A DNA stretch of 2,375 nt from assembly GCA_000004985.1 (NCBI GenBank), contig GG739266.1; one strand, written 5' to 3'. Below, in pieces: positions 165 through 2,375 of the stretch. The notes beneath the pieces are model-generated. The model did no database searches. It worked only from the letters and a program-made list of their open reading frames with translations, and was not told the origin of the DNA. Position numbers and translations under genes: made by a program. Every line of letters starts with the position of its first letter. The stretch's first letter is position 1. The DNA is from Naegleria gruberi. Taxonomy: Eukaryota.

Positions 165-2375
165 GAACCAATTATTTGTGGTACAACTGAGGAAGAAAGC
201 AATTGTTATGGTAACGGCACATGTCTTGATGGATTGTGCATCTGTGTTGAGGGTATGAACGGAACATACTGTAATGAAACAACTGCTTCAGAACCTCAAA
301 TTCCAACTGAACCAGTTAAATGTGGATCAACCATTGAAGAAAATAATTGTTATGGAAATGGAACATGCGTAAATGGTATTTGTATTTGCAACTCTAATGT
401 AAATGGAACATACTGTAATGAAACAACTGCTTCAGATCCTCAAATTCCAACTGAACCAGTTAAATGTGGATCAAGTATTGAAGAAAATACTTGTTATGGA
501 AATGGAACTTGCATCAATGGTATTTGTATTTGTAATACAAACGTTAATGGAACCTTCTGTAATGAGACTTCTGAAACTCCAACACCTCAACCAGAACCAG
601 TTGTTAAATGTGGTATCACTGAAGATGAGAATAACTGTTATGGAAATGGTACTTGCATCAATGGTGTCTGTGCTTGTAATTCAAACGTAAATGGCACATA
701 TTGCAATGAAACAAATTCTGAATCTCCAACAGAACCAATAATCAAATGTGGTTTCACTGAAGATGAGAATAATTGTTATGGAAATGGTACCTGTATTGAT
801 GGAATTTGTGTTTGTTACGGAAGTGCAAATGGCACATTCTGTAATGCAACAGAAACAAAGATACCAGGTCAAACAGAACAAATTAACTGTGGTATAACTA
901 TAGATGAGAACACTTGTTACGGAAATGGTACTTGCATCAATGGTGTTTGTAATTGTGATGTTGGTGTGAATGGCACTTATTGTAATGAAACAACACATGA
1001 GCCTCAACCAGAACCTGTTGTTAAATGTGGTTTCACTGAAGATGAGAATAATTGTTATGGAAATGGAACTTGTTTGAGTGGTGTCTGTATTTGTAATTCA
1101 AACATTAATGGTACATATTGCAATGAAACAAATACAGAACCAGTTACTCCAGAACCAGAACCTGTCAAATGTGGTGAAACATTGGAAGAAAATAACTGTT
1201 ACGGAAATGGAACCTGTTTAAATGGTATTTGTGTTTGTAAGTCAAACATTAATGGTACATATTGCAATGAAACTACATCAGAACCAGTTATCCCACAACC
1301 AGTACCAATTAAATGTGGTGAAACATTGGAAGAAAATACTTGTTATGGAAATGGTACATGTGTAAATGGTATTTGTATTTGCAACTCTAATGTAAACGGT
1401 ACTTTCTGTAATGAAACAACTCCAGAAACTCCAATTCCACAACCTGAACCAATTAAATGTGGAACAACCATTGAGGAAAATAGTTGTTATGGAAATGGAA
1501 CATGTGTAAATGGTATTTGTATTTGTAATACAAACGTTAATGGTACATTCTGTAATGAAACTTCTGAAACTCCAACACCTCAACCAGAACCAGTTGTTAA
1601 ATGTGGTTTCACTGAAGATGAGAATATTTGTTACGGAAATGGAACTTGCATTAATGGTATTTGTGTTTGTAATTCAAACATTAATGGTACATATTGCAAT
1701 GAAACTACATCAGAACCAGTTATCCCACAACCAGTACCAATTAAATGTGGTGAAACATTGGAAGAAAATACTTGTTATGGAAATGGTACATGTGTAAATG
1801 GTATTTGTATTTGCAACTCTAATGTAAACGGTACTTTCTGTAATGAAACAACTCCAGAAACTCAAATTCCAACTGAACCAGTTAAATGTGGATCAACCAT
1901 TGAAGAAAATAATTGTTATGGAAATGGAACTTGCATGAATGGTATTTGTGTTTGTATTACCAACGTTAATGGAACCTTCTGTAATGAAACAAGTCATGAG
2001 CCTCAACCAGAACCTGTTGTTAAATGTGGTTTCACTGAAGATGAGAATAATTGTTATGGAAATGGAACTTGTTTGAATGGTGTCTGTATTTGTAATTCAA
2101 ACATTAATGGTACATATTGCAATGAAACAACATCAGAACCAGTTACTCCACAACCTGAACCAATTAAATGTGGTGAAACATTGGAAGAAAATACCTGTTA
2201 TGGAAATGGTACATGTGTAAATGGTATTTGTATTTGCAACTCTAATGTAAACGGAACATTCTGTAATGAAACAACTCCAGAAACTCCAATTCCCCAACCT
2301 GAACCAATTAAATGTGGATCAACCATTGAGGAAAATAGTTGTTATGGAAATGGAACATGTGTAAATGGTATTTGT
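123..2375 (+). CDS. Partial CDS: the 3' end runs off the window and the 5' boundary is unreliable. The product is a secreted or surface-type protein made of about 15 tandem EGF-like cysteine-rich modules separated by Pro/Thr/Glu-rich linkers, and it is probably heavily N- and O-glycosylated.
   Basis: I translated the + strand by hand with codon starts divisible by 3. After the TAA at 120-122 there is no stop through 2375, about 750 codons. About 15.5 units of 46-48 aa follow, each with six Cys at EGF-like spacing: KC-x9-C(YGNGT)C-x4-C-x-C-x8-C then NET. The unit period is always a multiple of 3 (144, 141 or 138 nt), so the frame holds across the array. Differences between copies are often synonymous (tgt/tgc, tat/tac, ggt/gga/ggc, aat/aac), consistent with purifying selection on the protein. 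The ATG at 123-125 is only the first in-frame Met. It falls inside repeat sequence read out of frame (the 'aaatggtacat' of an NGT motif), and [12 protein letters not shown]... is not a convincing signal peptide. The repeat frame is properly restored only from about 165 (gaa cca att att tgt ggt). The true start is therefore probably upstream of the window, or the 5' copy is defective. Confidence 0.78.
   Translation, partial: [751 protein letters not shown]
1221..1430 (+). repeat. Higher-order repeat copy A of the 432-nt (three-unit) super-period.
   Basis: The roughly 210-nt block 1221-1430 recurs at 1653-1862, an offset of exactly 432 nt, with a single mismatch that I could find (aag at 1238-1240 versus aat at 1670-1672). 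Unit types cycle as FTEDEN, ETLEEN, (S/T)TIEEN through 1023-2375. Confidence 0.9.
1653..1862 (+). repeat. Higher-order repeat copy B of the 432-nt super-period.
   Basis: Near-identical to 1221-1430 (see above). The linker 'ccaattccacaacctgaacca' in copy A is replaced by 'caaattccaactgaacca' after the block ends. Confidence 0.9.

Follow-up and report, generated by a model that had tools for sequence, protein, structure and literature searches.

The 2,375-nucleotide stretch of contig GG739266.1 analysed here, called the window throughout, raises the question of whether the tandem repeat that fills it belongs to a gene and, if it does, what kind of product that gene would make. Our answer is that the window probably lies inside a gene whose product is a large glycoprotein, secreted or attached to the surface, and that the gene most likely belongs to a eukaryote with an AT-rich genome. 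This answer is carried by a long reading frame under purifying selection, the product of which is an array of six-cysteine modules of the epidermal growth factor (EGF) type, each followed by a linker, with three conserved N-x-T sequons in every unit. From these features we infer secretion, glycosylation, a structural or adhesive role outside the cell and an origin in a eukaryote.

A reading frame under purifying selection

Frame 3 of the + strand is free of stop codons from 165 to 2375, a run of 737 codons that is still open at the 3′ end of the window. Traced back to the TAA at 120-122, the frame comprises 751 open codons, whereas no run in 2,000 shuffled versions of the window exceeded 169, and the other five frames contain between 17 and 106 stops each. 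A first-pass annotation made from the letters of the sequence had already reported one frame open for more than 2.2 kb, and had presumed that it was missing from the list of open reading frames (ORFs) because it has no stop inside the window; both statements hold, since the frame runs off the end. At the default cut-off of 60 residues that list consists of four ORFs only (403-690 and 1510-1797 on the + strand, 681-1007 and 1278-1583 on the − strand). None of them gave a Pfam family match above noise, and they are out-of-frame or antisense by-products of the repeat, rightly called spurious by the same annotation. Because open-ended ORFs are discarded, the list here misses the one feature of the window that truly codes for protein and shows nothing but by-products of the repeat.

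The differences among the repeated modules show that frame 3 is real coding sequence under purifying selection. Pairwise DNA identity across the 96-nt modules ranges from 61 to 100%, and the between-module differences, which are drawn from paralogous repeat copies and are hence not independent, number 530, 435 and 1413 at codon positions 1, 2 and 3, respectively. In a Nei-Gojobori count the proportions of synonymous and nonsynonymous differences are 0.61 (pS) and 0.14 (pN), giving a pN/pS of 0.23, with a median dN/dS of 0.16. It is this concentration of substitutions at third codon positions, together with a dN/dS of about 0.16-0.23, that identifies the frame as coding. At the protein level, 90 of 90 cysteines are intact in the 15 complete modules, and all modules have kept YGNGT after the second cysteine (C2), a Gly in the turn between C3 and C4, NGT before C6 and N-x-T after C6. 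Across the modules, each invariant Asn or Thr in the three sequons is encoded by two to three synonymous codons, which means that these residues have been held at the protein level and have not merely stayed unchanged since duplication.

The GC content at third codon positions (GC3) is 14.5%. This points to a very AT-rich genome, and a virus or bacterium of AT-rich composition would fit it as well. Gln is encoded by CAA in all 14 cases; a ciliate genetic code was considered and is needless, as the frame holds no in-frame stops. No RNA family was found in an Rfam scan of the window.

Six-cysteine modules and their linkers

The array consists of 15 complete six-cysteine modules and a sixteenth that is cut by the window end, in line with the at least 15 consecutive modules noted at first pass. 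Each module is 32 residues long and follows the spacing C-x8-C-x5-C-x4-C-x-C-x8-C in 15 of 15 cases, and all 94 cysteines of the product fall in six-cysteine units. The first loop had previously been given as x9, a spacing that matches none of the modules and is a miscount by one residue. This C1-C2 loop is long (x8) and acidic (e.g. TEDENN, TLEENT or TIEENN). Between C5 and C6 the consensus is N-S-N-[VI]-N-G-T-[YF], with the aromatic residue standing immediately before C6 as G-T-[YF]-C, and not the Gly-aromatic pair that had been described.

Several EGF families of Pfam recognise the array, namely EGF_Teneurin (E = 7.5e-53, 176.7 bits against a cut-off of 24.3, 15 stretches), EGF_integrin (4.2e-39, 132.8 bits against 27), EGF_2 (4.1e-38, 129.9 bits against 22.1), EGF_TEN (4.7e-36), EGF_Tenascin (1.2e-12) and EB (1.4e-6), the first four matching 11-16 stretches each. 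Single modules reach 24.4-26.6 bits with EGF_Teneurin, compared with a gathering score of 24.3, and lie at or just under the score of EGF_2; most profiles start aligning at C2 in such searches. Among the profiles that the first-pass annotation had put forward for this search, EGF_2 thus gave a clear match, whereas hEGF on the array (E = 8) and the laminin profile EGF_laminin on a single module (E = 0.19) were not significant. Although the EGF_integrin profile matches, the eight-cysteine pattern of laminin-type or integrin I-EGF modules is absent. When 14 distinct modules were compared by hhalign with the tenascin-type repeats of the protein P0011, the match had a probability of 96% and an E-value of 4.7e-9, with C2-C6 ungapped and in register and C1 left unaligned. 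In a sequence search of the PDB, reelin fragments were the only solved structures matched, via their EGF modules. As for PROSITE-type patterns, EGF_1 (C-x-C-x5-G-x2-C) is present in 15 of 15 modules and EGF_2 (C-x-C-x2-[GP]-[FYW]-x4,8-C) in 0 of 15, and neither the calcium-binding EGF consensus ([DEQN]-x-[DEQN]2-C ... C-x-[DN]-x4-[FY]-x-C) nor the Asx-hydroxylation pattern occurs in any of the 15.

At the level of sequence, these results support an EGF-like identity of the modules, as first proposed, with the tenascin/teneurin/reelin type as their nearest kin. We have filed the array as EGF-like and not as tenascin or teneurin, because the short first loop, the G-aromatic-x-G motif and the abutting modules are all absent. 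Disulfides would be expected to pair cysteines 1-3, 2-4 and 5-6, judging from the alignment to reelin and tenascin-type EGFs. AlphaFold models of low confidence place strands at C3-C5 and before C6, as in EGF.

The linkers measure 14-16 residues from C6 to the next C1, or 10-12 without the conserved NET at their start and the K that precedes C1, compared with the 8-12 residues estimated initially. Their form is N-E-T, followed by a Pro/Glu/Thr-rich stretch of 10-12 residues and then K, and they contain 22% Pro, 18% Glu, 17% Thr and 4% Ser. In the two-module AlphaFold model, itself of low confidence, the predicted local distance difference test score (pLDDT) of the linkers is below 50. The 737 residues contain 46 N-x-S/T sequons, with three N-x-T sequons in each unit, all of them conserved. 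The product has an isoelectric point (pI) of 4.05 and a net charge of about −75, contains no Arg or Trp, only 2 His and 2 Met, and has no hydrophobic run longer than 5 residues. Most of the acidic charge sits in the C1-C2 loop and in the linkers. Pfam, NCBIfam and PHROGs revealed neither an enzyme nor any further domain in it.

Read together, these properties would give a molecule built like beads on a string, in which EGF-like beads of 32 residues are joined by linkers of 14-16 residues rich in Pro, Glu and Thr. The disulfide-locked modules would form rigid, protease-resistant knobs, the proline-rich linkers would serve as extended, disordered and probably O-glycosylated stalks, and the three invariant N-x-T sequons per unit may bear N-glycans. 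Knobs, stalks and glycans would then combine into a long, strongly negative (pI of about 4), heavily glycosylated rod or brush, whose role in the coat of a cell surface, in a wall or in a matrix would most likely be structural, adhesive or protective, and not that of an enzyme.

The array and its 5′ edge

Features of the window, with the coordinates of modules and linkers given for each unit of the array
Feature	Coordinates	Strand	Basis or remark
ORF, frame 3, 737 codons	165..2375	+	open frame vs shuffles, third-position bias, Pfam EGF families
Unit 1: module 177-272 (most divergent), 16-residue linker 273-320	177..320	+	
Unit 2: module 321-416, 16-residue linker 417-464	321..464	+	
Unit 3: module 465-560, 16-residue linker 561-608	465..608	+	
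Unit 4: module 609-704, 14-residue linker 705-746	609..746	+	
Unit 5: module 747-842, 15-residue linker 843-887 (the sole linker without the NET...K frame)	747..887	+	
Unit 6: module 888-983, 14-residue linker 984-1025	888..1025	+	
Unit 7: module 1026-1121, linker 1122-1169	1026..1169	+	module 98% identical to module 14
Unit 8: module 1170-1265, linker 1266-1313	1170..1313	+	
Unit 9: module 1314-1409, linker 1410-1457	1314..1457	+	module 100% identical to module 12
Unit 10: module 1458-1553, linker 1554-1601	1458..1601	+	
Unit 11: module 1602-1697, linker 1698-1745	1602..1745	+	
Unit 12: module 1746-1841, linker 1842-1886	1746..1886	+	
Unit 13: module 1887-1982, linker 1983-2024	1887..2024	+	
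Unit 14: module 2025-2120, linker 2121-2168	2025..2168	+	
Unit 15: module 2169-2264, linker 2265-2312	2169..2312	+	
Unit 16, ended by the window edge after C4 (21 residues)	2313..2375	+	
Frameshifted 'unit 0'	1..164	+	alignment to 567-762, about 98% identity apart from indels
Frame-3 lead-in from ATG, 14 residues	123..164	+	sequence read directly
Putative most recent duplication, two copies of a 190-nt exact repeat	1242..1863	+	part of the three-unit higher-order repeat

Tandem Repeats Finder describes the window as a 144-nt period in 16.5 copies, with a higher-order period of 423 nt in 4.8 copies (79% matches). The first loops of the modules are of three types, F (CGFTEDEN), E (CGETLEEN) and S/T (CG[ST]TIEEN), and from unit 7 onward these types follow one another in a roughly three-unit cycle, matching the period of 423-432 nt. 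Modules 9 and 12 are each 96% identical to module 15. An exact repeat of 190 nt is found at 1242-1431 and 1674-1863, that is 432 nt or three units apart, although the divergence among other modules reaches 39%; either three units were duplicated or converted very recently, or the repeat is an assembly loop. The coexistence of old and very young copies, in steps of one and three units, would fit unequal recombination or gene conversion, and the array probably grows and shrinks as blocks of one unit (138-144 nt) or three units (423-432 nt) recombine unequally. Units 5 and 6 (747-983) are divergent, with the C5-C6 loops YGSANGTF and DVGVNGTY, and module 1 is even more so, at 61-68% identity to the other modules; these divergent units may be an older core of the array. 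The GC skew is +0.20 to +0.28 at 600-1200 and 0.02-0.16 elsewhere, the elevated region coinciding with the divergent units 5-7.

The first-pass annotation began at 165 and left out a further copy of the unit at 1-164. This copy corresponds to 567-730, i.e. linker 3 and module 4, and apart from indels is about 98% identical to it, with two substitutions over some 150 nt. It carries 1-nt deletions at about 48 and 62 and, at about 160-165, a further indel with loss of a Lys codon, which brings the reading back to frame 3. All frames are interrupted between 1 and 164, and the stretch can be read only piecewise, as a linker of 14 residues in frame 1 (1-42) followed by C1 at 43-45, and a module core of 25 residues in frame 2 (62-136) followed by the linker NETNSDSPT (137-163). 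The core pattern CYGNGTCxxGxCxC matches this frameshifted copy at 68-109. The ATG at 123 follows directly on the TAA at 120-122, and the lead-in that it opens is an out-of-frame reading of the NGTYCNET region, sharing the out-of-frame peptide MVHIAMKQ with the spurious listed ORFs. As a start codon or the beginning of a signal peptide this ATG is not credible, since it arises only from the frameshift, although a gene caller would probably place the start there.

The state of the copy at 1-164 could be due to a read or assembly error at a contig end, or to decay of a copy at the edge of the array. The former is favoured, because indels are in excess over substitutions in a near-identical copy, and because they sit only at the window edge. 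Another possibility is that the order and number of units are in part an assembly artefact, the contig being a collapsed or chimeric version of an array that is in truth longer, or of more than one paralogous gene. An array with a period of 144 nt, copies that are 61-100% identical and an exact repeat of 190 nt is hard to assemble, the identity of 98% between 1-150 and 567-716 falls abruptly to about 68% at the next module, as it would at a chimeric junction, and indels occur only at one end of the window. On the other hand, over 2.2 kb there is no break in the frame, in the phase of the units or in the higher-order pattern of three units. We hold such an artefact to be rather unlikely; it concerns copy number and order only, and is compatible with a fragment of a glycoprotein gene.

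It could also be that the repeat is dead or dying, a pseudogene or the remnant of a gene, with its function lost only recently and its frame still open because the units are young copies. Three frameshifting indels within the first 164 nt, with no frame open across them, would agree with this, as would the lack of a start codon and signal peptide (the lead-in from ATG 123 being an artefact), the identity of 96-100% between some units, which makes them young, and the absence of the product from a gene-call index, in which translations from 123, 138 and 255 were each sought as exact matches and not found. The first-pass annotation had named stops or frameshifts throughout the extended array as the mark of a dead repeat, and frameshifts do occur in this one unit, but the 2,210 nt that follow, from 165 to 2375, contain neither stops nor indels, although their modules differ by up to 39% in DNA. 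The excess of synonymous over nonsynonymous differences and the intact cysteines and sequons described above are likewise not what a dead repeat would be expected to show, and two indels beside two substitutions in a 98%-identical stretch of 150 nt at the edge resemble read or assembly error more than natural decay. We consider a dead repeat unlikely.

Several points nevertheless weigh against our reading of the window as a fragment of a functional gene for a eukaryotic glycoprotein. The codon counts share the non-independence of the paralogous copies from which they come, and the GC3 does not discriminate between sources. Neither a credible start codon nor a stop codon for the frame lies in the window, which also lacks a signal peptide and a membrane anchor, so that secretion is argued from the domain type and the sequons only, neither gene end lying inside the window. 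The unit adjoining the array upstream (1-164) is frameshifted three times and there is no AG acceptor at 121-180; if the sequence is accurate, the open frame could not be joined to an upstream signal peptide without splicing. The AlphaFold models, for which the paralogues served as the alignment, had a pLDDT of only 58.6 for one module and 53.3 for two, and a Foldseek search of the PDB with the one-module model returned only unrelated small disulfide-rich peptides at E ≥ 2.3.

Relatives, origin and known systems

With phmmer, 1.84 billion representative proteins, among them at least some annotated eukaryotic ones, were searched exhaustively; 37 matched at E ≤ 0.001, the best with an E-value of 6e-11 and 38% identity. 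These matches are generic EGF arrays, none with the x8 loop and P/T linker. The 18 that were read in detail are unexceptional proteins with EGF repeats, in most of which the first loop is short; the sources of ten were looked up, and they are scattered eukaryotes (Eukaryota sp. TZLM1-RC, Muranothrix, Apostichopus, Guillardia) or metagenome contigs. Among roughly 15 billion predicted proteins there was no relative above about 40-50% identity. When 5.8 billion protein clusters were searched by means of a word index, a single weak match emerged, to an unrelated EGF protein of algal type; the candidate list had probably been saturated by generic EGF words.

The core of the unit was also sought in nucleotide collections. 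The back-translated pattern CYGNGTCxxGxCxC has 16 matches in the window and 0 in shuffles. It gave 0 matches in the 2.9 million IMG/VR viral contigs, a single match in 185,579 prokaryotic species genomes, which lies in a frame interrupted by stops and is due to chance, and one match in JGI metagenome contigs, to an unrelated single EGF domain. In the IMG/VR contigs, NGT[YF]CNET had 0 matches, the shorter CYGNGTC had 26, all due to chance according to tblastn, and a protein-based scan revealed no relative. For the groups that the first-pass annotation had named as rich in such proteins (Amoebozoa, parabasalids and giant viruses of amoebae), neither the 1.84 billion representatives nor the IMG/VR contigs thus yielded a close relative. 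There was no match in a phage collection by blastn, nor to NCBIfam or PHROGs profiles. In the metagenome contig Ga0247837_1004537 (L002:2030-3676), an ORF of 548 residues ends in a single EGF module followed by CxxC-rich sequence and has the CYGNGTC core, by chance or through distant homology.

From this, an origin in an AT-rich eukaryote is favoured, because the sequons are conserved, the weak matches are spread over eukaryotes and the motif is absent from prokaryotic genomes. The lack of relatives above 40-50% identity, and the absence of the motif from the viral, prokaryotic and JGI metagenome sets, suggest in addition that this eukaryote is unsampled or unannotated. A giant virus (Nucleocytoviricota) of an AT-rich protist, in which the product might be a glycosylated capsid-fibre or surface protein, would share the very low GC3, the freedom from introns over 2.2 kb and the orphan sequence, and three of the weak matches (P0014, P0024 and P0036) are Asn-rich EGF-repeat proteins from metagenome contigs. 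Since neither the protein scan nor the three signature-pattern scans of the IMG/VR contigs turned up a relative, and the phage collection held no match, we find a viral source quite improbable. A prokaryotic or phage surface protein with eukaryote-like EGF modules is more improbable still. The uninterrupted ORF and the AT-rich composition would be compatible with one, and EGF-like profiles occasionally match bacterial proteins; however, the single chance match in the prokaryotic genomes and the negative searches of NCBIfam, PHROGs and the phage collection speak against it, and three strictly conserved N-x-T sequons per unit would fit eukaryotic N-glycosylation.

The kind of protein is no surprise, the EGF-on-stalk design being common among eukaryotic surface and matrix proteins. 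Tandem EGF modules on glycosylated stalks are well known, and what is new here is the orphan sequence of the unit. One could go further and propose that the array stands for a lineage-specific, previously unsampled family of proteins that build an extracellular wall or coat, in an AT-rich protist, or its giant virus, whose genome has no annotation. The acidic C1-C2 loop, the lack of Arg and Trp at a charge of about −75 and the three N-glycan sites per 46-48 residues would then be marks of a specialised function, which may be that of a cation- or mineral-binding matrix of a cyst wall, scale or test, or of a glycan-shield antigen of variable repeat number; a generic adhesion role would need none of these three features. 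We regard this proposal as doubtful. Were the source identified, the variable repeat number and the dense conserved sequons would make the gene a candidate strain-typing marker or surface antigen, and repetitive surface proteins of Entamoeba have been used for strain typing or as antigens (PMC2907411).

Among known systems, the EGF modules of tenascin, teneurin and reelin (Pfam EGF_Teneurin PF23106, EGF_Tenascin PF18720 and EGF_2 PF07974) resemble those of the window in having six cysteines with the identical C2-C6 spacing of x5, x4, x1 and x8, a Gly in the C3-C4 turn and another three residues before C6, and in being strung together in long tandem arrays within proteins outside the cell; the reelin EGF of known structure can be aligned with the module sequence. 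They also differ in several respects. In the tenascin-type repeats of P0011 the first loop is x3 where the window modules have an acidic x8, and the modules abut, whereas each module of the window is followed by its Pro/Glu/Thr linker of 14-16 residues. The tenascin-type motif G-[FYW]-x-G is replaced by N-[VI]-N-G-T-[YF], no fibronectin-III, fibrinogen, YD-shell or reeler domain is visible in the window, and the identity of its product to any such protein is at most 49%, over short stretches.

A second comparison is with matrix proteins of the type of CyrA from Dictyostelium, a secreted Cys-rich protein with tandem EGF-like repeats said to resemble tenascin Ten14 and a segment rich in Pro, Glu, Ser and Thr (PEST-like) (PMC3899956). 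This protein of an AT-rich amoebozoan resembles the window product in combining tandem EGF-like repeats with Pro/Glu/Thr-rich sequence, but CyrA has four repeats only, as well as a calmodulin-binding domain (PMC3899956). No CyrA-type protein emerged as a close match, the exhaustive search having given nothing above 38% identity at E < 1e-10. Gly in the array is encoded by GGT about as often as by GGA, a usage that we take to be unlike that of D. discoideum.

The Jacob cyst-wall lectins of Entamoeba, with three to six tandem six-cysteine modules separated by low-complexity spacers with O-linked glycans, an acidic pI, a polymorphic repeat number and a location in the extracellular wall, illustrate the same design principle in an AT-rich protist (PMC2907411). 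They are a working analogy only: their modules are chitin-binding domains and not EGF-like, their spacers are Ser-rich and of variable length, and EhJacob2 is devoid of N-glycosylation sites (PMC2907411), whereas the window product has three sequons per unit.

Finally, the second-best match of the exhaustive search, P0003 (KAL0208212.1) from Eukaryota sp. TZLM1-RC, has six near-identical tenascin-type EGF modules, each with an acidic, Pro-containing linker (SEPDEQP). Its linkers are of 7 residues, its first loop is x3 and its modules have the canonical G-W-T-G motif; its N-terminal region looks by eye like a papain-like protease. The identity of 45% extends over the EGF cores only, so that at the unit level P0003 belongs to a different family. 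It provides an independent example of EGF modules carried on short, acidic, Pro-containing linkers.

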